NCBI RefSeq assembly: GCF_054482525.1
Contig: NZ_CM137006.1
Reading direction: 5' to 3' (one strand)
Length of the DNA: 64,000 nt
The notes beneath the pieces are model-generated. The model had not been told where the DNA came from, did no database searches, and worked only from the letters and a program-made list of their open reading frames with translations. This document shows positions 5,322 to 30,825 of the stretch, in pieces (the stretch's first letter is position 1; each line of letters begins with the position of its first letter). The translations under genes and the position numbers were made by a program.

Positions 5322-9002
<3,681 letters not shown>

Positions 9003-10502: not shown

Positions 10503-10787
10503 TTTGTCGCTCCATGCGCTTGCTCTTCATCTAGCGGTTAAAATATTACTTCAAATCTTTCTGTATGAAGATTTGAGCACGTTGGCCTTACATACATCTG
10601 TCGGTTGTATTTCCCTCCAGAATGCCAGCAGGACCGCACTTTGTTACGCAACCAATACTATTAATTGAAAATATTCCTAATATTTGACATAAATCATCAA
10701 CAAAACACAAAGAGGTCAGACCAGATTGAAACGATAAAAACGATAATGCAAACTACGCGCCCTCGTATCACATGGAAGGTTTTACCA

Positions 10788-11198
10788 ATGGCTCAGGTTG
10801 CCATTTTTAAAGAAATATTCGATCAAGTGCGAAAAGATTTAAACTGTGAATTGTTTTATTCTGAACTAAAACGTCACAATGTCTCACATTATATTTACTA
10901 TCTAGCCACAGATAATATTCACATTGTGTTAGAAAACGATAACACTGCGTTAATAAAAGGACTTAAAAAGGTTGTAAATGTTAAATTCTCAAGAAATACG
11001 CATCTTATAGAAACGTCCTATGATAGGTTGAAATCAAGAGAAATCACATTTCAGCAATACAGGGAAAATCTTGCTAAAGCAGGAGTTTTCCGATGGGTTA
11101 CAAATATCCACGAACATAAAAGATATTACTATGCCTTTGATAATTCATTACTATTTACTGAGAGCATTCAGAACACTACACAAATCTTTCCACGCTAA
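10788..11198 (+). CDS. DUF1398-family phage protein (ybcV-like)
   Basis: 136-aa product from [31 protein letters not shown]...; track ORF trimmed to Met42; alternative start Met28 possible. Confidence 0.6.
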
Positions 11199-11489
11199 AT
11201 CATAACGTCCGGTTTCTTCCGTGTCAGCACCGGGGCGTTGGCATAATGCAATACGTGTATGCGCTAAACCCTGTGTGCATCGTTATTAATTATTCCCGGA
11301 CACTCCCGCAGAGGAGTTTCCCTGTCAGGGCTGCGGACATAGTTAATCCGGGAATACAGTGATGATCCTTCGCATCTGACATACATTAATAAATATTAAC
11401 AATATGAGATTTCAACTCATTGTTTAGGGTTTGTTTAATTTTCTACACATACGATTCTGCGAACTTCAAAAAGCATCGGGAATAACACC

Positions 11490-11783
11490 ATGAAAAAAAT
11501 GCTACTCGCTACTGCGCTGGCCCTGCTTATTACAGGATGTGCCCAACAGACGTTTACTGTTCAAAACAAACCGGCAGCAGTAACACCAAAGGAAACCATC
11601 ACCCACCATTTCTTCGTCTCTGGAATTGGGCAGAAGAAAACTGTCGATGCAGCTAAAATTTGTGGCGGCGCAGAAAATGTTGTTAAAACAGAAACCCAGC
11701 AAACATTCGTAAATGGATTGCTCGGTTTTATTACTTTAGGCATTTATACTCCGCTGGAAGCGCGTGTGTATTGCTCACAATAA
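11490..11783 (+). CDS. bor: Bor outer-membrane lipoprotein (serum-resistance moron)
   Basis: 97 aa, MKKMLLATALALLITGCAQQTFTVQNKPAAV..., lipobox LITGC; reads as lambda Bor; opposite strand to lysis genes as in lambda. Confidence 0.92.
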   Translation: MKKMLLATALALLITGCAQQTFTVQNKPAAVTPKETITHHFFVSGIGQKKTVDAAKICGGAENVVKTETQQTFVNGLLGFITLGIYTPLEARVYCSQ

Positions 11784-14835: not shown

Positions 14836-14998
14836 GACTCCTCCTTGCTGCCAGTCGCAACCATTTTTTATCAACCAGGCTGGCGGTATATCCGAGCAGT
14901 GTTGGTATTTCGGATGGCTTCAGCTCAGGCTTACGCTTACGACGATTTGGTACTCTGTAGATGTGTCCGTTCATGACACGAATAAGCGGTGTAGCCAT
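14828..14998 (-). CDS. ninE: NinE-like protein (56 aa)
   Basis: Hand-translated [56 protein letters not shown]; basic and NinE-like; below the 60-aa track cutoff; start overlaps ybcN stop (TAATG). Confidence 0.65.
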   Translation of the reverse strand: MATPLIRVMNGHIYRVPNRRKRKPELKPSEIPTLLGYTASLVDKKWLRLAARRSHG

Positions 14999-15453
14999 TA
15001 CGCCTCCTGCTTGTCGCGCAGCAGCTGGAACTCGCAGCTCTGCGGAATAGTCAGGTTGCAGCCAATATTCATCGCCCAGGCTTCAACCTTACACAGGAAG
15101 ACATACATCTCTCCGGTATCAAGATCGGAGGTATGGCGTAACGACTGGATAGTAGTGATTTCGCCGGTTACGACATCAACCAGGTCCTTGGTTTCATAAC
15201 CGAGGTATGTGTGTTTGAGAGCATCTTTTACCCATGCTGCGGTAGCGAACGATTTCCCCCTGCTGATGAGGTATTCACTGATTTCGCTGTACCACATATG
15301 GCTGAGTGCATTCTGGGAAAGACTGCGTTTCTCTCGCCACGGTTTAAGCACCATGCGAAAGCATTTGCCTTCCTCCAGATAAGGCTGGATCTGCTGGCCG
15401 ATAGCGGTGAAGTTGCCGCGATGTAATTTGATGCCGTCTTGTGAGAGGTTCAC
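14998..15453 (-). CDS. Nin-region protein of the DLP12 YbcN type
   Basis: 151 aa, [45 protein letters not shown]..., recalled as YbcN-like. Confidence 0.8.
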
Positions 15454-15667
15454 GCTTCACCTCCGCAGAGCTCAAACGCTAGATGCAAAGAATTGCAGGT
15501 GCATTTCTGCATCTGTGAAGGGAGAAGAGAGTTTGGATTGTATGTGCGCATAAACGTCCCCGTTTAGCGCAGAAGTCACCGGAGTTGTTCAGGCTCCGGT
15601 GACATAATTATGCCGTGTTGATTTCCCAAAATCAAAATCGATAGAATTGCTCCTTCTTAAAACACTT

Positions 15668-16465
15668 TTACTCTCTGGAAGCTTTTCTTATCTCTCTTGG
15701 TGTTATATTAAAACGATTATGAAATCTTTCAGTAAAACGAGAAGGACACTTATAACCATTTTCTCTGGCAATCTCGCTTATAGGTTTTACCGTCGTTTGT
15801 ATAGCAGACAACGCATTATTTAACCTCACATCGTCCAGTATACTTTGGAAACTTACCCCCTCGCTTGCTAGACGGCGATGTAATGTAGAAACAGAAATGT
15901 AGAGATATCGTGCAACCTTGTTTGCTGTCCATTTTGTGCCGGGTTCGGATAGCAGCAGGCTATAACAACGACTTATCAATGATTGTTTACTATATGATAA
16001 AAGTAAATGATTAACATGATTCACTCCTAACGAAAGTAGAACGCCCATTGCTAAGTGTTCCTGAATTTTAGTTGAGAAGCCTCGGGAAACAGATGTTTTT
16101 AGTTGCTCCCAACAATATATTAACTCAGGATTCTGAGGTAAAAAGAAACTTGTTTTGTTACGTATTTGATCAGTTACCGTATAAAGTTTTTGGAAACTCT
16201 CAATTAAATCAATGGGTAAGTAAAGCATTTCTGCAAGATAAAGCCCTGCTTCAGGATAATTCTCAATATAAAATTCATAACCACAAGGAAATAATATTAT
16301 TTGATTATTATCAACAGTTAAAGTATGCGTCTCCCAATTGATAACTTTCTTTCCCTGACGGATACGACACAAAGCTGGCATAAGAGGCTTAACCCTATGA
16401 ATCTCATGATGTTTATGCATTCGTATTTCTTCGATCTTTAAGTTAGTCTTACCTCTTGCCAGCAT
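15668..16465 (-). CDS. AraC/XylS-family transcriptional regulator (ybcM-like), prophage cargo
   Basis: 265 aa with C-terminal AraC-type HTH (...[39 protein letters not shown]...); AT-rich gene. Confidence 0.85.
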
Positions 16466-16474
16466 ACTCTCACC

Positions 16475-17026
16475 CTACTTTATCTCATAAACTGGTGTTA
16501 TCTCAGCGGTTGCGATTTTATTAGCATTAAGCATATAACCAACTAACGCTCCGCTGGAGTTAGAATCTACAGGAATCTTTTCAGTTTTTAGAGCCCATAC
16601 TTTAAACTGGTAATGATGTGGTTTATCTCCTTTAGGAGGACATGCGCCACCAAACCCAGCATAGCCAAAATCATTTCGGCCTTGAACAGCACCAGTCGGC
16701 AGTTTTGTTCCATCACGTCTCCCTGCATCAACGGGCAAATATGTTACTGTTGCTGGAATATTAACAACAGTCCAATGCCACCAACCACTGCCTGTAGGTG
16801 CATCTGGATCATATACAGTTACGGCAAAGCTTTTGGTACCTTCAGGAACACCAGACCAGGTTAATGAGGGCGATGTATTACCACCTTCACACCCAAATCC
16901 AGAAAAGACATGAGACGTTGTAAGTTGCTCTCCTGTTTTTATTTCATTACTAGTGACCTGAAATGCTGCAGCCTGCGCAGAAAATGTTATGAATGCCAAT
17001 ACAGTTGAAACGATAAGTGTTTTCAT
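16475..17026 (-). CDS. Periplasmic PEBP/YbhB-family protein (ybcL-like) with signal peptide
   Basis: 183 aa, N-terminal signal peptide MKTLIVSTVLAFITFSAQAAAFQ; PEBP-like motifs (DPDAPTGSGWWHW, GYAGFGGACPPKGDKPHHYQF). Confidence 0.85.
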   Translation of the reverse strand: MKTLIVSTVLAFITFSAQAAAFQVTSNEIKTGEQLTTSHVFSGFGCEGGNTSPSLTWSGVPEGTKSFAVTVYDPDAPTGSGWWHWTVVNIPATVTYLPVDAGRRDGTKLPTGAVQGRNDFGYAGFGGACPPKGDKPHHYQFKVWALKTEKIPVDSNSSGALVGYMLNANKIATAEITPVYEIK

Positions 17027-17243
17027 AAAAACCTCTTTGTTATGACCTATCGTTATTTTATTTGATATTCCTTTATCTCATTATGCATAAAGGCGCAATG
17101 TTCATGCAAAAGCAATCACAATTGTACCCCCAACCCAATTATTTGCCACAATATACACAAAGCACATTGATACTATCTAAAAACTCTGCTTTATTATTAG
17201 TAATACCTACGAAAGTTGGTGTTATTTTTTAACCTACCATTCA

Positions 17244-17293
17244 AAATACGTGACATACACCATTTTGCTCATAATAATTTGTCACGTATTTTC
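17244..17293. repeat. Perfect 13-bp inverted repeat AAAATACGTGACA / TGTCACGTATTTT with 24-bp spacer
   Basis: Read directly from sequence in the AT-rich spacer between the recombinase 3' end and the PEBP gene start. Confidence 0.6.
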
Positions 17294-17490
17294 AGTATTT
17301 GAATCTGCGACCAAGAGTTCTCACCTAACAAATGATTAAGATTGTATAGCTCATTTACTACCCCAATACAGCCGTACAAAACTCGCTTGTGGGAGCAAAC
17401 AAAGTAATTACCCATTAAGTTTCGTTAAAGATAATTAATTCTGTCTTGCACTTTATCATCATAGCATAACTTAAAATCCGAGATCATTAT

Positions 17491-19017
17491 TTAGAAATAA
17501 ATCTCACCATCAACCATATATTTGAGAGCACTTATCGCCTGCTGGGCGGATATTACTTTCATTAAAGGATAGTGTTTAAAAACAATGCCATTCATAAAAT
17601 AGATATCACAGGTTTTATTATCCGTATTAATTATGATTTTTTCGAATGTTTTATAGGCAAGTGTACGGCATAACTCTCGTCCATTTTTACTGGTTAAGTC
17701 AATAGCATAAAAATCACTGAATGAATTTACACCTTTACTCTTCAAAGTTTTCAATGATACCGAAGCCCTTCGTAATTCCTTATCTAATAGTCTTATTTTC
17801 TCTGCTATAGCGGTAACTTCAGGCGCGACAGACAATGCAACGATTAAATTATTAATTTTCATCTGAAGCTCAATAATTTTTAACTCTAAAGTTTCATTAG
17901 CATCTTTCTTGTTTTCAACTGGTTGAATTTTGCTACAATTAAAAAGCAATTCATTAATGATATTATAATCAACCAAATCTCTTTTTATTGATGGCCTGTC
18001 ACATCGATGTAATCTTCTCATCGGACAAACATAATAGCCATGCAAACTTCCAGATACCGCATGAACAATCATGGTATTACCACAAGCCTCACACTTCATA
18101 ACTGTTCGAAGTAGATTTATTAGCATAGGATTCTTGCTACTATTGCTAATACCAAAAGGTGCCAACCGAATTTCCTGTACAGCGTAAAACAAATCATCTG
18201 ATATGACTCTGGGATAATAGCCAGCGATTTCACTTATCCCTTTCCCTCTTGCACGATATGAAGGTACGCATATACCTATCAGAGCTTTATTCGCTAATAA
18301 TTTTTCAATTACAGAAGGTCCCCATGCACTTTCTTTTCCTGAGAAATTCTTTACAGCATGATCATTTAAATACTTGGCTATTGCATTCAATGAGCGCCTT
18401 TCCATCCTGAGTTTAAAAATTAGCTCAATAGTTTTCACCCTGTCGGGGTCTGGAACAAAAGCCGTTCTTTTGTCATCTAAGGAGAGCCATCTCGGACAAG
18501 ACGCCGTCATAATCGTACCTGATTCCAGTGCATCCTGCCGTTTTTTCTTCCATGATAATTTAACCCGACTTGACTTTATCTCGCTTTCTTCATTTGCCCT
18601 TTGTGCTATAAGTATGGCTTTTATTAATGAATATGGCTCATTCAAAGAGTCAATATTATAGACTGTATTGTCGCAAAGAGTTATAACATCAATACCGTGA
18701 TTCAAAATCAATTTCAGACGTTCAATCGCTTCACCGACTTTTTCTCTTGAAAGTCTGTCCAGACTTTCAACTAACAATGTAGTTCCTGGCAATATATAAC
18801 CATGCTCTATAGCATCTAAAAATTCCGAAAAAGCTCCTGATTGTGCATGCTTTCCTTTGAATGCACTTAATCCTAAATCTTCATATGTTATGGTATCAAG
18901 ATAATAATCACTATTTACCTTTAACCATTCAGCAATAAGTCTTCTCTGTCGGTTTAATGAGTCGCCAGACATCTGACCTGGTGATGAAAATCGCATATAT
19001 GCTATGGCTTTTTTCAT
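17491..19017 (-). CDS. Large serine recombinase (ybcK-like), 508 aa
   Basis: N-terminal resolvase/invertase catalytic motif (AIAYMRFSSPGQ...SLNRQ), central recombinase domain, C-terminal Cys-rich zinc-ribbon (CEACGNTM...CPMRRLHRC). Confidence 0.85.
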   Translation of the reverse strand: MKKAIAYMRFSSPGQMSGDSLNRQRRLIAEWLKVNSDYYLDTITYEDLGLSAFKGKHAQSGAFSEFLDAIEHGYILPGTTLLVESLDRLSREKVGEAIERLKLILNHGIDVITLCDNTVYNIDSLNEPYSLIKAILIAQRANEESEIKSSRVKLSWKKKRQDALESGTIMTASCPRWLSLDDKRTAFVPDPDRVKTIELIFKLRMERRSLNAIAKYLNDHAVKNFSGKESAWGPSVIEKLLANKALIGICVPSYRARGKGISEIAGYYPRVISDDLFYAVQEIRLAPFGISNSSKNPMLINLLRTVMKCEACGNTMIVHAVSGSLHGYYVCPMRRLHRCDRPSIKRDLVDYNIINELLFNCSKIQPVENKKDANETLELKIIELQMKINNLIVALSVAPEVTAIAEKIRLLDKELRRASVSLKTLKSKGVNSFSDFYAIDLTSKNGRELCRTLAYKTFEKIIINTDNKTCDIYFMNGIVFKHYPLMKVISAQQAISALKYMVDGEIYF

Positions 19018-19271
19018 GGTGACACCTGCTAACGTATGCTTTTATAAACCTTAGTGGTGGGATATAATTTTTGTTTAATTTTTATTTAAAAAGACAATTA
19101 AGGTCACATTATCTTGAATATACAACAATAATCGTATTGCAATTTTCTTACGCCATAATCTTGAAGGCACAAAAGAATACATAAAAAATAAAGACATTAA
19201 CAAAAAGCATAAAACGAGGCTCATATAAATATAAGAGCCTCCATATTTTAGTCGTTTAGAAACAAATTATT

Positions 19272-19604
19272 TTAATGTGGTGTACTTCGTGACAATAAAT
19301 TAATAACCAACACACCGGCACAAATCAACATCATGCCTATAATGGCTGGCAGGTCCAGCCGTTGGCCGAAAAATCCCCATGACAGTAAGCTAATCAGGAC
19401 AATACCGACTCCTGACCAGATAGCATAAGCAATCCCTGTAGGAATATAAGCCAGCGTCTGAGCTAATAACCAGAATGATGCACAATAACAAATAATTGTA
19501 CCAACAGATGGCCATAACCGTGTAAAACCTTCTGAAAACTTCATTAAGGTTGTACCAATGACCTCTGCAAGTATTGCACCACCAAGATAAATATAAGGGT
19601 TCAT
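19272..19604 (-). CDS. emrE: Small multidrug-resistance efflux protein EmrE
   Basis: 110-aa product from MNPYIYLGGAILAEVIGTTLMKFSEGFTRLWPSVGTII..., reads as EmrE; track ORF trimmed to Met19. Confidence 0.88.
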   Translation of the reverse strand: MNPYIYLGGAILAEVIGTTLMKFSEGFTRLWPSVGTIICYCASFWLLAQTLAYIPTGIAYAIWSGVGIVLISLLSWGFFGQRLDLPAIIGMMLICAGVLVINLLSRSTPH

Positions 19605-19671
19605 AGCATATTCTTTCCTGTTCAAACTGGAGAGAATTGTACTACAGTTTGAACTCAACTCACCTGTTTCA

Positions 19672-19974
19672 TCATTGTGTACCCATTGATGTTCTTTTAT
19701 ATACCCTCAATACCCGTTTCATCGCGGCACTCTGGCGACACTCCTTAAAAATCAGATTCGTGCTCACCTTTCCTTCCCGTTCTTCTCTGGTAGCGAACCG
19801 GTAATACACCGTTCGCCAGACCTTACCATCAACGACCAGGATTCCTGCCCGCGCCATTTTAGCCGCAGCCTGATTTATGCTGGTTACGGTTGCGCCTGTT
19901 ACCGCGGCAACGTCCTGTGCACAGAAGCTCTTATGCGTCCCCAGGTAATGAATAATTGCCTCTTTGCCCGTCAT
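19672..19974 (-). CDS. ren: Ren (Rex-exclusion escape) protein
   Basis: MTGKEAIIHYLGTH.SFCA.DVAA.TGATVTSINQAAAKMARAG... reads as lambda Ren. Confidence 0.85.
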   Translation of the reverse strand: MTGKEAIIHYLGTHKSFCAQDVAAVTGATVTSINQAAAKMARAGILVVDGKVWRTVYYRFATREEREGKVSTNLIFKECRQSAAMKRVLRVYKRTSMGTQ

Positions 19975-22539: not shown

Positions 22540-22620
22540 TAATTTGAATCAAGATTAAAACTATGGTTGTTTTTAGTCAACAACCATTTTCGTTTGATGG
22601 AATAAAACCTTGGTTGTACA
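22540..22620. promoter_or_regulatory. Right operator/promoter region (OR-like) between divergent cro-like and cI-like genes
   Basis: Palindrome ATGGTTGTT-N7-AACAACCAT at 22563-22587 and related AACTATGGTT / CCTTGGTTGT half-sites; the same motif family recurs at 24335-24390. Confidence 0.5.
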
Positions 22621-22628
22621 TTTGGACT

Positions 22629-23318
22629 ATGAAAACAACACTCTCAGAAAGACTTAAAGAAGCCAGATTAGCGCGAGGCCTTACACAAAAGGCGCTTGGG
22701 GATTTGGTCGGGGTTAGCCAAGCTGCTATTCAGAAAATCGAAACAGGGAAAGCTAACCAAACAACTAAAATCGTGGAGATCGCGAACGCTTTGGGTGTGC
22801 GCGCAGAATGGTTATCTTCTGGCGTTGGAAATATGTCAGACAGTACAGTGCAACCAATACAATCAACTGTCAGCCATTCCAAATACTTTAAGATTGACGT
22901 TCTTGATATAGAAGTGAGTGCCGGGCCGGGAGTCATCAACCGTGAATTTGTAGAAGTTCTACGCTCGGTTGAGTACTCGTTTGACGATGCTCGTCACATG
23001 TTCGATGGCAGGAAGGCGGAAAATATCCGCATCATTAACGTGCGTGGTGACAGCATGTCAGGAACGATCGAACCAGGTGATCTGCTGTTCGTTGATATCA
23101 CGGTTAAATCTTTCGACGGTGATGGTATCTATGCGTTTCTGTACGACGACACAGCCCATGTAAAGCGCCTGCAAATGATGAAAGATAAGCTACTGGTTAT
23201 CTCTGATAACAAGAGCTACTCACCGTGGGACCCGATCGAGAAAGACGAGATGAACCGGGTGTTCATTTTCGGGAAGGTTATTGGCAGTATGCCGCAGACG
23301 TATAGGAAACACGGATAA
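22629..23318 (+). CDS. Prophage repressor, LexA/S24 peptidase type with N-terminal HTH
   Basis: MKTTLSERLKEARLARGLTQKALGDLVGVSQAAIQKIETG... (HTH); C-terminal ...NVRGDSMSGTIEPGDLLFVD...HVKRL... (S24 Ser/Lys motifs); trimmed to first ATG. Confidence 0.8.
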   Translation: MKTTLSERLKEARLARGLTQKALGDLVGVSQAAIQKIETGKANQTTKIVEIANALGVRAEWLSSGVGNMSDSTVQPIQSTVSHSKYFKIDVLDIEVSAGPGVINREFVEVLRSVEYSFDDARHMFDGRKAENIRIINVRGDSMSGTIEPGDLLFVDITVKSFDGDGIYAFLYDDTAHVKRLQMMKDKLLVISDNKSYSPWDPIEKDEMNRVFIFGKVIGSMPQTYRKHG

Positions 23319-23397: not shown

Positions 23398-23667
23398 ATG
23401 AGTGATAAAAAACTTATAAAAAAATCAAATAACTGTGTAGATGCATATGCTGATGCATTTGGATATTCATCTTTTGGGGAAGATGACGATCGCTTAGGCT
23501 CCATATCTTTCTTTCAGCATGTTACAGAATGGGGCGCTGATGGTAGTAATGACACTGAAAACGTAAAGTACAACATTGCAACAATTCGCATGACGGAAGA
23601 TTTAATGCTTAAACTCGCTGACTTTATTCGCGATCAGCATGATAGAGCTAAAACCAATAAGTCATAA
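23398..23667 (+). CDS. Hypothetical acidic protein (89 aa), first gene of the repressor-downstream moron
   Basis: ATG start with upstream AAAGG; no family recognised; C-terminal KYNIATIRMTEDLMLKLADFIR is reminiscent of a ribbon-helix-helix strand-helix. Confidence 0.5.
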   Translation: MSDKKLIKKSNNCVDAYADAFGYSSFGEDDDRLGSISFFQHVTEWGADGSNDTENVKYNIATIRMTEDLMLKLADFIRDQHDRAKTNKS

Positions 23668-23675
23668 TATTAACA

Positions 23676-24116
23676 ATGAAACACGGTTATTACGAAGCTC
23701 CAAACCTAACTGAAAAGCTTGAACAAGCGGCAAGATCATCATCTTTGCACACTGCAGCATTTTCTCAATCAGCTGGTATGTCTGGCGGTAATGTACCTAT
23801 GCTACAATCAAGTGGTAGCGGTGGCTCTGGGAGTAATAATGTGCTTGAATCGAAAGTTGCAAAGCTTGAGTCTGATGTGTCCTATATCCGACGTGACGTT
23901 GATGAGCTTAAGACAGATGTCAAATCTATCGACAGAAACATGATCGCTGTTCTGGAGCGACTCGATTCAATAAAAGATTCACTAGCCAAAAAACCCTCCA
24001 TCGATGCTGTCGATAGAAAGATTTCAGACGCAAAGCTTGCGGTATTGCTTGGTGTTCCAGCAATCATCGCTGCAGGAACAGGTCTTTATAAGCTATCAAT
24101 GTACTTTTTTCTTTAG
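23676..24116 (+). CDS. Hypothetical coiled-coil protein with C-terminal membrane anchor (146 aa)
   Basis: 8-bp gap after upstream gene; Gly/Ser-rich linker (SSGSGGSGSNN), charged heptad-like stretch, C-terminal hydrophobic helix LAVLLGVPAIIAAGTGLY; no family recognised. Confidence 0.5.
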   Translation: MKHGYYEAPNLTEKLEQAARSSSLHTAAFSQSAGMSGGNVPMLQSSGSGGSGSNNVLESKVAKLESDVSYIRRDVDELKTDVKSIDRNMIAVLERLDSIKDSLAKKPSIDAVDRKISDAKLAVLLGVPAIIAAGTGLYKLSMYFFL

Positions 24117-28092: not shown

Positions 28093-28329
28093 ATGTCTCG
28101 ACTAATCACTTTACAGGACTGGGCTAAAGAAGAATTTGGGGACTTAGCACCAAGTGAGCGAGTTCTGAAAAAATACGCGCAAGGGAAAATGATGGCCCCA
28201 CCCGCTATAAAAGTTGGTCGCTACTGGATGATTGACCGAAATTCCCGTTTTGTAGGAACGCTTGCAGAACCGCAACTCCCAATAAACGCAAACCCAAAAC
28301 TCCAACGGATAATCGCTGATGGCTGCTAG
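28093..28329 (+). CDS. xis: Excisionase (Xis-like)
   Basis: 78 aa; N-terminus MSRLITLQDW... parallels lambda Xis MYLTLQEW...; AGGAGG RBS; 3' end overlaps int start. Confidence 0.7.
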   Translation: MSRLITLQDWAKEEFGDLAPSERVLKKYAQGKMMAPPAIKVGRYWMIDRNSRFVGTLAEPQLPINANPKLQRIIADGC

Positions 28330-29461
28330 ACCCCGATCTCACAAAATCTCTATACCCAATTTATATTGCAAATTAGATAAGCGAACCGGAAAGGTATATT
28401 GGCAATACAAACATCCACTATCCGGTCGTTTTCATAGCTTAGGAACTGATGAGAATGAAGCAAAACAAGTTGCTACTGAAGCAAATACCATTATTGCTGA
28501 ACAACGTACCCGACAAATATTAAGCGTCAATGAGCGTCTAGAAAGAATGAAAGGCAGGCGCTCAGACATTACGGTGACAGAATGGCTTGATAAATATATT
28601 TCTATCCAGGAGGACAGGCTGCAACATAATGAACTAAAACCCAACTCCTATCGGCAAAAAGGTAAACCCATTCGTCTTTTCCGTGAGCATTGTGGAATGC
28701 AACACCTCAAGGATATTACCGCACTTGATATTGCCGAAATAATTGATGCTGTAAAGGCTGAAGGTCATAACAGGATGGCGCAAGTCGTGAGAATGGTGTT
28801 GATCGACGTCTTCAAAGAAGCACAACACGCAGGACATGTTCCGCCAGGATTTAACCCAGCGCAGGCAACAAAACAACCGCGAAATCGAGTAAACCGCCAA
28901 AGATTATCACTGCCCGAATGGCAGGCAATATTTGAAAGCATAAGCAGACGGCAGCCCTATTTAAAATGCGGCATGCTACTTGCTCTTGTTACTGGACAAC
29001 GTTTAGGCGATATCTGCAATTTGAAATTCTCTGATATATGGGACGACATGTTGCACATTACTCAGGAAAAAACCGGTTCAAAACTTGCTATTCCGCTTAG
29101 CCTGAAATGCGATGCTCTGAATATTACCCTTCGTGAAGTTATATCTCAGTGCAGGGATGCTGTTGTTAGTAAATATCTGGTCCATTACCGTCACACTACC
29201 TCTCAAGCAAACAGAGGAGACCAGGTTTCTGCAAATACTCTTACAACGGCTTTTAAAAAGGCCAGGGAAAAATGTGGCATAAAATGGGAGCCAGGAACTG
29301 CGCCCACATTTCATGAGCAGCGATCTCTGTCAGAACGGTTATATCGGGAACAGGGTCTGGATACGCAAAAGTTGTTAGGTCATAAATCCAGAAAAATGAC
29401 CGACCGATACAATGATGATCGTGGTAAAGACTGGATTATCGTAGATATCAAAACAGCATAG
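28319..29461 (+). CDS. int: Tyrosine integrase, lambda Int family
   Basis: 380 aa; motifs shared with lambda Int (RSHK near N-terminus, ...VTGQRLGDICNLKFSDI..., ...TFHEQRSLSERLY..., ...LLGHKS...RY.DDRG..W); adjacent to the attachment junction. Confidence 0.9.
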   Translation: MAARPRSHKISIPNLYCKLDKRTGKVYWQYKHPLSGRFHSLGTDENEAKQVATEANTIIAEQRTRQILSVNERLERMKGRRSDITVTEWLDKYISIQEDRLQHNELKPNSYRQKGKPIRLFREHCGMQHLKDITALDIAEIIDAVKAEGHNRMAQVVRMVLIDVFKEAQHAGHVPPGFNPAQATKQPRNRVNRQRLSLPEWQAIFESISRRQPYLKCGMLLALVTGQRLGDICNLKFSDIWDDMLHITQEKTGSKLAIPLSLKCDALNITLREVISQCRDAVVSKYLVHYRHTTSQANRGDQVSANTLTTAFKKAREKCGIKWEPGTAPTFHEQRSLSERLYREQGLDTQKLLGHKSRKMTDRYNDDRGKDWIIVDIKTA

Positions 29462-29574: not shown

Positions 29575-30825
29575 TTACATATTCTTGATGATCGCGTCAC
29601 CAAACTCTGAACATTTCAGCAGTTTAGCGCCTTCCATCAGACGTTCGAAGTCATAGGTTACAGTCTTGGCGTTGATCGCGCCTTCCATACCTTTAACAAT
29701 CAGGTCTGCGGCTTCAGTCCAGCCCATATGGCGCAGCATCATCTCAGCGGAGAGAATAATAGAGCCTGGGTTTACTTTGTCCTGACCGGCATATTTCGGC
29801 GCAGTACCGTGGGTGGCTTCAAACAGGGCGCATTCGTCACCGATGTTTGCGCCTGGGGCGATACCGATACCGCCGACCTGTGCAGCCAGAGCGTCAGAAA
29901 TGTAGTCACCGTTCAGGTTCATACAGGCGATAACATCATATTCAGCCGGACGCAGCAGAATCTGTTGCAGGAATGCATCAGCAATCACGTCTTTAATGAC
30001 GATCTCTTTGCCGGTATTCGGATTTTTAACTTTCAGCCACGGGCCGCCGTCGATCAGTTCACCGCCAAACTCTTCACGCGCCAGCTGGTAGCCCCAGTCT
30101 TTAAACGCGCCTTCGGTGAATTTCATGATGTTGCCTTTGTGAACCAGGGTCACAGAGTCACGATCGTTAGCAATTGCGTATTCGATCGCTGCACGAACCA
30201 GACGTTTGGTGCCTTCTTCAGAACACGGCTTAATACCGATGCCGCAATGTTCCGGGAAGCGAATTTTCTTCACACCCATCTCTTCACGCAGGAATTTAAT
30301 CACTTTCTCAGCGTCGGCAGAGTCTGCTTTCCATTCGATACCCGCATAAATGTCTTCCGAGTTTTCACGGAAGATAACCATATCGGTCAGTTCAGGGTGT
30401 TTAACCGGGCTTGGGGTGCCCTGGTAGTAACGTACCGGACGCAGGCAGATATAGAGATCCAGCTCCTGGCGCAGGGCAACGTTCAGAGAGCGAATACCGC
30501 CACCAACCGGAGTGGTCAGCGGGCCTTTGATGGCAACGCGATATTCACGAATCAGATCAAGGGTTTCAGCAGGTAGCCAGACATCCTGACCATAAACCTG
30601 TGTGGATTTTTCACCGGTGTAAATTTCCATCCAGGAGATTTTACGCTCGCCTTTATAGGCTTTCTCGACTGCAGCGTCGACCACTTTCAGCATGGCTGGG
30701 GTTACATCTACACCGATTCCATCACCTTCAATGTAAGGGATAATCGGATTTTCAGGAACGTTGAGTTTGCCGTTTTGCAGGGTGATCTTCTTGCCTTGTG
30801 CCGGAACAACTACTTTACTTTCCAT
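29575..30825 (-). CDS. icd: Isocitrate dehydrogenase (NADP), 3' end contributed by the prophage
   Basis: 416 aa, [38 protein letters not shown]..., ends ...FGDAIIKNM. Confidence 0.95.

Follow-up and report, generated by a model that had tools for sequence, protein, structure and literature searches.

A probable composite moron cluster with an orphan accessory serine recombinase in the early operon of a lambdoid Escherichia coli prophage

The window analysed here (contig NZ_CM137006.1 of assembly GCF_054482525.1, 64,000 nucleotides) contains a lambdoid prophage that retains cI, cro, O, P and Red genes. Its tyrosine integrase shares 98% identity with the one annotated in the O157:H7 PA20 prophage at icd. 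Between ren and ninB/ybcN lie four genes, emrE, ybcK, ybcL and ybcM, all on the minus strand (Table 1). Profile matches confirm the identities given in an initial annotation (emrE, a large serine recombinase (LSR), a PEBP protein and an AraC regulator), and composition and flanking genes bear out the AT-rich, foreign character and the ren/nin placement that it described: 15638–19660 has the lowest GC of all 4-kb windows in the 64 kb, 3.2 SD below the mean (0.362, versus 0.50 for the whole window and 0.51 for each flank). The extent first drawn, 15454–19660, holds from 15638 onwards, and 15454–15637 (GC 0.47) is conserved lambdoid nin-leader DNA. The promoter-distal flank, ninB/ybcN, lies outside the island. 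As expected of accessory-slot cargo, the genes deviate in composition and have a conserved phage gene on each side, and relatives fill the slot variably. The island is the known emrE–ybcK–ybcL–ybcM accessory cluster of DLP12-type lambda-like E. coli prophages, in agreement with the initial annotation; the K-12 DLP12 block has the same genes, order and strand, is likewise flanked by a ren remnant and ybcN, and MG1655 is 99.6% identical over 17182–19300. DLP12 survives as a truncated remnant at argU, whereas the prophage described here is at icd and has a different tyrosine integrase.

Table 1. Features of the island, its flanks and the prophage integrase (positions in the window)
Feature	Position	Strand	Evidence or remark
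ninB/ybcN, first conserved nin gene	14998–15453	-	PHROG 72 NinB/Orf, 1.6e-51; NCBIfam PRK09741, 276 bits
Conserved lambdoid nin leader, 184 bp	15454–15637	-	Upstream edge 15637/15638 is the true island boundary
Hairpin in nin leader, 10-bp stem	15575–15603
-10 (CATAAT) of nin-leader promoter	15607–15612
Palindrome TTGATT-N6-AATCAA in nin leader	15618–15635		Outer hexamer is the -35
ybcM, AraC-family regulator, 265 aa	15668–16465	-	AraC-type C-terminal HTH
ybcL, periplasmic PEBP/RKIP-like, 183 aa	16475–17026	-	NCBIfam NF007330 YbcL equivalog, 400 bits (cut-off 277)
ybcLM upstream region	17027–17181	-	Also present in ybcK-less copy beside fliE
Segment of 2083 bp (ybcK 3′ flank, ybcK, ylcJ leader, emrE terminator)	17182–19264	-	About 4 nt instead in fliE remnant
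Palindromic element, 50 bp, 24-nt spacer	17243–17292	.	13-nt perfect arms, 17243–55 and 17280–92
ybcK 3′ UTR block, about 70 nt	17421–17490	-	Weakly alignable with ybcK 3′ UTR in other-cargo phages
ybcK, LSR, 508 aa	17491–19017	-	Pfam domains (see text)
ybcK leader	19018–19271	-
ylcJ, small ORF in ybcK leader	19075–19224
Two 19-nt direct repeats in ybcK leader	19107–25 and 19154–72
emrE intrinsic terminator hairpin, then T-run	19216–19241
emrE, SMR efflux pump, 110 aa from ATG	19272–19604	-	NCBIfam EmrE, 240.6 bits (cut-off 226)
ren–emrE spacer	19605–19671	-	13-nt imperfect palindrome at 19620–19654
ren, promoter-proximal flank	19672–19974	-	PHROG 142 Ren-like, 6e-42
Tyrosine integrase of prophage, 380 aa	28319–29461	+	Adjoins icd (29575–30825)

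In phage and viral records emrE invariably adjoins ybcK. The N-terminus of YbcL, MKTLIVSTVLAFITFSAQA, reads as a putative signal peptide, and YbcM scores below the cut-offs of all named AraC regulators with which it was compared. ChIP-exo shows that YbcM binds upstream of ybcLM, and deletion of ybcM gives an H2O2-sensitivity phenotype (PMC8464067).

YbcK combines a catalytic domain, a recombinase domain and a zinc ribbon with a coiled-coil insert (Pfam Resolvase 4–161, Recombinase 191–284 and Zn_ribbon_recom 302–357). Its profile matches the C-terminal domain of A118 integrase (4kis, 2.9e-15; aligned to A118 residues 37–318, including the coiled coil). A phmmer search against the PDB gave no match, and no characterised LSR is more than distantly similar in sequence (XisF model, 47 bits; cut-off 375). 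Across 18 sequences with identities as low as 28%, catalytic residues R9, S11, D87, R88 and R91 and zinc-ribbon residues C309, C312, C331 and C339 do not vary; a missing active-site serine, named beforehand as the mark of a dead enzyme, was thus not found. Judged by its sequence, YbcK is a complete LSR with a conserved active site and does not look dead. It shares domain order, the catalytic Ser/Arg set, the zinc ribbon and the coiled-coil region with the A118/LI, phiC31, Bxb1 and TP901-1 integrases but, unlike them, lies away from the prophage–host junction, in a phage that integrates by a tyrosine integrase. That integrase, at icd, supports the earlier view of YbcK as a second, independent site-specific recombinase without an assigned substrate. 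We found no substrate assigned to YbcK of E. coli K-12, and no att-like dyad pair or partner site that could serve as its cognate attP/attB; the gene is internal to the prophage.

Such a gene could be a captured integrase without remaining function that hitch-hikes with emrE. It has no known substrate, Rho silences it in K-12 (PMC4150792), and its deletion from the fliE-adjacent remnant of 48% of genomes (see below) came without obvious cost. Against this, 84 of 85 ybcK alleles are intact, the median pN/pS of about 0.08 over 933 allele pairs indicates purifying selection, the catalytic and zinc residues do not vary, and the gene is kept in plaque-forming phages. We consider a decaying relic unlikely.

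The inverted repeat cited in the initial annotation, between ybcK and ybcL, is real and is bordered by an A-run and, on the opposite side, a T-run; it folds at -18.9 kcal/mol (z = -3.1). Its perfect arms and its 50-bp length, which is that of an LSR att site, could suggest an invertase substrate, with YbcK acting here, or on a different inverted pair, and thereby switching ybcLM or some other gene. However, the spacer has a single orientation in 27/27 loci, the central 24 nt are without the dyad symmetry seen in known att sites, no other cargo type and no other ybcK context contains the element, the fliE-adjacent copy keeps the ybcLM upstream region without it, and no inversions are seen between genomes. 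A switch of this kind is extremely improbable, and the earlier proposal that YbcK acts on a nearby site finds no support: no partner sites were found, nor any third copy of the arm in the window. We favour a terminator-like RNA hairpin between ybcK and ybcLM, or alternatively a protein-binding palindrome, over a recombination site as the reading of this element. The Pin/Gin/Cin tail-fibre invertases are, like YbcK, serine recombinases carried as extras by lambdoid prophages (PhiR34_1 and PhiR68_2 each combine ybcK with a Pin-type gene), but they are proteins of ~190 aa encoded beside an invertible segment, whereas YbcK is integrase-type, 508 aa long, and has no invertible segment nearby.

Other non-coding elements surround the gene. 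The ybcK 3′ UTR block is roughly two-thirds identical, by eye, between phages, its homology ending in ...TATCTTKAACGAA, and has no inverted partner in the window. In K-12 the untranslated leader of ybcK holds a Rho-dependent terminator (PMC4150792). The palindrome of the ren–emrE spacer folds no better than shuffles (z = -0.8), and promoter-like matches in the island are not commoner than in shuffles.

Comparison with relatives defines the edges of the island. The ninB-side edge (15637/15638) is common to HK639, IdasGreatGrand and PhiR30_1, which have unrelated cargo and no ybcK; homology with all three stops at one nucleotide, 15636/15637, just upstream of the -35 of the nin-leader promoter annotated in phage 82 (record X92588, which also marks a ‘possible regulator-binding site’). 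The nin leader, for which a fold of -23.5 kcal/mol was computed, also holds orf33/ylcH. On the other side, homology with ybcK-less PhiR30_1 resumes at 19708, within the 3′-terminal part of ren. Neither direct nor inverted repeats were found to flank the island, and no att-like dyads were found at its ends. These edges are ordinary lambdoid module-exchange points. Together with the lack of recombinase-type rearrangements described below, this is the outcome that the initial annotation had named as refuting a cassette mobilised by YbcK; that reading is not supported, and YbcK is not needed to explain the island. The morons of HK639, PhiR30_1 and IdasGreatGrand occupy the same ren–ninB slot, share its ninB-side junction at the nin-leader promoter, and resemble the island in foreign composition, possession of a putative terminator of their own and dispensability for phage growth. 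Their cargo is different, one example being a DNA polymerase III theta homologue and another an acyltransferase together with a lipoprotein, and they carry no recombinase.

Genome comparisons likewise give no sign of mobilisation. Collinearity over 17182–19300 (emrE–ylcJ–ybcK) extends to 1399 of the 1426 ybcK-positive complete E. coli genomes; among the non-collinear ones inspected, two have IS1 in or beside ybcK and one has IS1 at a deletion edge. No prophage is permuted at ybcK in any of the 1426, no inverted segments separate the window from three full prophage-derived genomes, and recombinase-type rearrangements or alternative orientations are absent from the 1426 genomes, 80 viral contigs and four whole phage/prophage sequences, although such assemblies record fixed states only and would not reveal YbcK-dependent circles or inversions that are rare or transient. 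In Tn4451/TnpX, Tn5397/TndX and SCCmec/Ccr, too, an LSR neighbours a gene for efflux or resistance within foreign, AT-rich DNA. Tn4451, Tn5397 and SCCmec have terminal sites, excision polymorphism and a recombinase at the element end, in all of which the island differs. A recombinase-mobilised island or transposon of the Tn4451 or SCC type is not supported, with no terminal repeats and no empty or circular-junction arrangement among the 80 viral loci and 1426 genomes.

A ybcK-less emrE–ybcL–ybcM trio lies beside fliE in 2610 of 5426 complete E. coli genomes (48%). Its ends (15451 and 19681) are those of the phage island, and window positions 15451–17181 align with positions 5997–7727 of the fliE-adjacent copy L001 at 89.6%. 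Clean absence of 17182–19264 from this copy, together with an LSR beside resistance-type cargo in foreign AT-rich DNA, could mean that YbcK inserted the 2083-bp segment, or even the whole island, as a nested integrative element able to excise again. Yet the fliE junction looks like an old illegitimate deletion, because it has about four extra nucleotides and the lineage is 10% diverged; moreover, ybcK is internal rather than terminal, the island ends are the generic junctions, common to ybcK-less phages and free of repeats or att-like dyads, described above, and no genome or viral contig has an empty site or permuted arrangement. We judge a nested element very unlikely.

All 80 IMG/VR loci have the order P–ren–emrE–ylcJ–ybcK–cargo–leader–ninB, with at least nine cargo sets directly 3′ of a constant emrE–ylcJ–ybcK; among the alternatives are an alpha/beta hydrolase, an HNH-like protein and a BstA abortive-infection protein of full length (3.8e-121). 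Across three separate clades, inter-locus homology stops almost exactly at the ends of the recombinase ORF (-68 to 0, -34 to 0 and 0 to +29). Such breaks are typical of mosaic junctions, but site-specific events at the ends of the gene could give the same pattern. Integron-like capture, in which YbcK would insert or exchange cargo just after its own stop codon and so create the variable region, would account for this variety, and for the change of flanks at the stop codon in two other clades. But cargo diverges at six distances after the ybcK stop (0, 66, ~75, ~280, ~420 and 486 nt), nested like successive indels, one junction being a deletion with a 5-nt overlap; the far ends of the cargo have no repeated site or shared motif and form a general lambdoid junction that is also used without ybcK, and the conserved ybcK 3′ block is unpartnered. 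Capture by YbcK is accordingly quite improbable.

The region is, in our assessment, probably a composite moron cluster in an accessory slot of the early rightward operon, reaching from ren to the nin promoter/leader. The comparisons suggest that ordinary lambdoid mosaicism assembled the island and reshuffles it, through homologous exchange within conserved P/ren DNA at one end and within the 184-bp nin leader and ninB at the other, and through illegitimate deletions and insertions inside; YbcK would have no visible part in building it. In this cluster emrE would end at its own intrinsic terminator and ybcLM would be autoregulated by YbcM, as ChIP-exo indicates (PMC8464067). We read emrE and ybcLM as lysogen-expressed, host-beneficial cargo, which is consistent with about half of complete E. 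coli genomes keeping the trio beside fliE with ybcK deleted. The fliE-adjacent trio itself suggests a domesticated prophage remnant, the cargo being what the host retains.

The recombinase gene is oriented as O, P and Q. Gene order and published K-12 terminator data place ybcK behind both the emrE terminator and the Rho-dependent leader terminator. On this basis the gene probably stays silent in the lysogen, and its product is probably made only when infection or induction yields N-antiterminated early transcripts. A passive-moron model leaves an intact YbcK, with pN/pS near 0.08, unexplained. We tentatively propose that YbcK performs conservative recombination on a site pair neither in nor beside the island, in an attP × attB-like reaction suggested by its integrase-type domain architecture, the sole basis for that part of the proposal.

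Relatives of YbcK fill accessory slots of other phages. A tyrosine integrase stands alongside a YbcK-type gene in Perceval, the PhiR phages, the window prophage and prophages of Pantoea and Atlantibacter; among phages with YbcK relatives an integrase was observed in three, each of the tyrosine type. It is possible, if some way short of probable, that YbcK-type proteins are a distinct clade of accessory LSRs under strong purifying selection, probably with lytic or early-only expression and a target outside their own locus. Members would be single-gene modules in cargo slots of Enterobacterales temperate phages that already own a tyrosine integrase, in the nin region or just after a tail-fibre assembly gene, and would also occur in conjugative or mobilisable plasmid-like DNA; candidate reactions would include secondary-site integration, multimer resolution and rearrangement of host or competitor DNA.

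Rediscovery of the island, by our reading a known composite moron cluster with an orphan accessory recombinase, matters little, because it is textbook K-12 DNA. Three points are worth keeping: the edges of the island are ordinary lambdoid exchange points; the recombinase-less trio stands beside fliE in about half of the complete E. coli genomes that we examined; and YbcK, for which we found no assigned substrate, is nevertheless conserved and intact, and plaque-forming phages carry it. Its target, if found, would give LSRs a new role in phages and possibly provide a new tool enzyme.

The window carries a minus-strand lambdoid prophage with the gene order cI, cro, cII, O, P, ren, emrE, ylcJ, ybcK, spacer, ybcL, ybcM, leader, ninB/ybcN, ninE, ybcO, rusA, Q (see table). 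Family searches confirm every gene identity assigned to the AT-rich island in the initial annotation: emrE, a large serine recombinase (LSR; YbcK), the PEBP-family ybcL and the AraC-family ybcM. GC content across 15638-19660 is 0.362, compared with 0.51 on either side, and is the minimum of all 4-kb windows in the 64 kb. The initial annotation equated this gene set with that of K-12 prophage DLP12, and MG1655 is indeed 99.6% identical over 17182-19300, making the island the DLP12 gene block within a more complete phage. YbcK is, as proposed, a second site-specific recombinase, the prophage also having a tyrosine integrase next to icd (98% identity with its counterpart in the icd-located prophage of O157:H7 PA20). 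Further AT-rich accessory genes lie elsewhere in this prophage, at 10665-11783 and 23398-24116.

Features of the prophage and its cargo island (window coordinates)
Feature	Position	Strand	Remark
ybcV-like ORF	10665-11198		DUF1398 gene annotated at same position in related strain
bor	11490-11783
ninB/ybcN	14998-15453	minus
nin leader	15454-15637		184 bp, conserved, between ybcM and ninB/ybcN
ybcM	15668-16465	minus
ybcL	16475-17026	minus
ybcK-ybcL spacer			464 bp
ybcK	17491-19017	minus
ylcJ	19075-19224	minus	small ORF
emrE	19272-19604	minus
ren	19672-19974	minus
cI	22563-23318	plus
two ORFs of unknown kind	within 23398-24116		directly after cI
tyrosine integrase	28319-29461		380 aa, adjoins icd

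The extent first given to the island (15454-19660) holds for 15638-19660 as cargo; the remainder, 15454-15637, is conserved phage leader DNA. The exact ninB-side edge lies at 15636/15637, where homology ends to three ybcK-less lambdoid phages with very different cargo (HK639, IdasGreatGrand and PhiR30_1). This position is the outer edge of a palindrome, TTGATT-N6-AATCAA; the phage 82 record labels the proximal hexamer of this palindrome as the -35 element of a promoter directed towards orf33 and ninB, and the hairpin that follows as a possible regulator-binding site. Phage 82 homology extends further, into the 3'-terminal part of ybcM. At the opposite edge, PhiR30_1 homology returns within the final codons of ren. 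Because these edges are common to phages without ybcK, both are general module junctions of a ren-nin accessory slot.

The contents of this slot vary behind ybcK. All 80 IMG/VR contigs sampled (ybcK at 96-100% identity) share the order P-ren-emrE-ylcJ-ybcK-[cargo]-leader-ninB, with at least nine cargo types among them, including ybcL-ybcM, an alpha/beta hydrolase on the opposite strand, a full-length BstA abortive-infection protein (PADLOC, 3.8e-121), a 260-aa HNH-like protein, several small proteins of unknown kind, and a 319-bp remnant as in O157:H7. Most non-ybcL types have a 105-109-aa ORF resembling the Ant C terminus right behind ybcK. The types diverge 66, ~280, ~420 and 486 nt past the ybcK stop codon, one junction being a deletion with a 5-nt overlap; the window type leaves the others at the stop codon itself, followed by ~70 nt of weak similarity. 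These junctions are nested indels and exchanges, not one crossover site. The presence of BstA makes the slot also a defence-gene hotspot; PADLOC has no match for YbcK, YbcL or YbcM. Examples of the BstA variant and other slot variants are L078 8524-10098 (IMG/VR) and L003 4197-5126.

Among 5,426 complete E. coli genomes, 1,426 carry ybcK and 670 the full four-gene block, and 2,610 have an emrE-ybcL-ybcM trio without ybcK adjoining fliE (for example, L001 6214-8073 in E. coli 1002W03). The fliE copy is ~90% identical to the phage copy, with ~4 nt in place of window 17182-19264. Its ends are those of the phage island (window 15451 and 19681) and an integrase gene occupies the same spot in other strains, so we interpret the fliE copy as what is left of a trimmed prophage, one that looks to have been domesticated. 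In many strains an IS200/IS605 tnpA lies on one side of the trio. Among sequenced phages, emrE is always accompanied by ybcK; 12 lambdoid phage records hold both, among them host-propagated isolates, for example PhiR34_1, Perceval, 4A7 and 1W.

We searched for sites on which YbcK could act. Around the island and around the 2083-bp ybcK segment, the only direct or inverted repeats are short chance-level pairs, and the pair 17272-86/19288-302 (12/15) matches no indel edge. An att-like site rebuilt from the fliE copy lacks dyad symmetry and has ~4 extra nt at the joint; the conserved block past the ybcK stop codon (17421-17490), considered as a half-site, has no inverted partner. The 50-bp palindrome at 17243-17292, earlier put forward as a candidate site, can be set aside: spacer orientation is identical in 27/27 loci, no further copy was found, and it is absent from other ybcK contexts. 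Its inner 24 nt have no dyad symmetry. As RNA the palindrome folds into a hairpin (-18.9 kcal/mol, z = -3.1) flanked by an A-run and a T-run, a prediction resembling a two-way terminator. Rfam gave no match. Comparing the window to three whole prophage-derived genomes brings out no shared inverted segments, and 1,399 of the 1,426 ybcK-positive genomes are collinear over 17182-19300; among the non-collinear rows inspected, two have IS1 in or beside ybcK and one has IS1 at the deletion edge. The suggestion of a recombinase-mobilised cassette thus meets generic module-junction edges, an absence of bracketing repeats, nested cargo junctions and near-uniform collinearity; mobilisation by YbcK is without support and, for the most part, contradicted by these comparative data.

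The recombinase itself is not degenerate. YbcK has a complete LSR architecture, and among relatives down to 28% identity no substitution occurs at R9, S11, D87, R88, R91 or any of the four zinc cysteines, which disposes of the concern that the active-site serine might be missing. Its family profile aligns to the A118 integrase C-terminal domain structure, coiled coil included; phmmer of YbcK against the PDB gave no match. Intact alleles number 84/85, and median pN/pS is 0.08 (933 allele pairs, limited to those with at least 20 differences); selection clearly maintains the gene.

Relatives at 40-61% identity occupy three kinds of location: prophage ends after a tail-fibre assembly gene (Yersinia, Atlantibacter, Erwinia, Ewingella), the nin region of lambdoid prophages (Pantoea and one further enterobacterial group), and plasmid-like DNA beside a PilV-like gene or IncFII repA. 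Those at prophage ends might be read as phage integrases; a 30-kb walk in Atlantibacter instead finds a tyrosine Int and Xis-like gene at the opposite end (att repeats of this prophage were sought and could not be defined). Each phage whose integrase part of the genome was seen has a tyrosine integrase (the Pantoea and Atlantibacter prophages, Perceval, three PhiR phages and the window). PhiR34_1 (L182 42972-43562) and PhiR68_2 (L183 44078-44668) have three recombinases each: YbcK, a tyrosine integrase and, next to the tail-fibre genes, a small invertase of the Pin type.

Between clade members in differing contexts, homology covers only the ORF and 34-68 nt upstream, and stops no more than 29 nt from the stop codon. 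Gene-boundary mosaicism produces such restricted homology; the YbcK-family gene may also be a self-contained mobile module. Three clades of the ORF-sized module show no terminal inverted repeats, and a 16-nt inverted pair bracketing a homologue occurs in one Citrobacter contig only. Citrobacter koseri contig L013 (9700-11640) has ~15 tandem CTTGTTT copies ending ~190 nt upstream of the homologue, a 16-nt inverted repeat around it (9805-9820/11623-11638, 14/16 match) and an adjoining PilV/shufflon-like gene. In lambdoid contig L016 the 5' portion of a DUF1367 gene is present twice, as a 181-nt direct repeat (86%; 9671-9851/12651-12831) enclosing an LSR-KGG-DinI segment; as a target-restoring att arrangement this was rejected, since sister loci L101-L103 lack the upstream copy and the repeat looks like a recombination scar. 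In Yersinia enterocolitica (L005 ~11700-11770), a 3' fragment resembling tRNA-Leu(UAA), identified by eye, lies ~170 nt past the homologue, in the interval that separates the end of a lambdoid prophage from a P2-like prophage. No complete tRNA is detected there by ARAGORN, and the fragment is probably an att remnant.

A GC-rich hairpin and T-run follow emrE, a Rho-dependent terminator is reported in the K-12 ybcK leader (PMC4150792), and ybcK shares the orientation of O, P and Q; from these features we infer that ybcK should be silent in the lysogen and would be read by N-modified polymerase upon infection or induction. The ylcJ start codon falls within the emrE terminator hairpin. Across the alleles compared (L026, L047, L061, L068), the O157-type lacks 10 nt, with loss of the terminator T-run and a changed small ORF, so ylcJ is poorly conserved. 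YbcM binds the region upstream of ybcLM, and cells deleted for it survive H2O2 less well (PMC8464067). Over-expression of ybcK raises sabinene tolerance (PMC7181518), which says nothing about the substrate of YbcK; our literature search found no paper that assigns one.

What was found is an already known accessory gene cluster, correctly re-identified. YbcK is genuine and conserved, a second site-specific recombinase of the prophage, and the modest interest of the finding rests on the question of its substrate.
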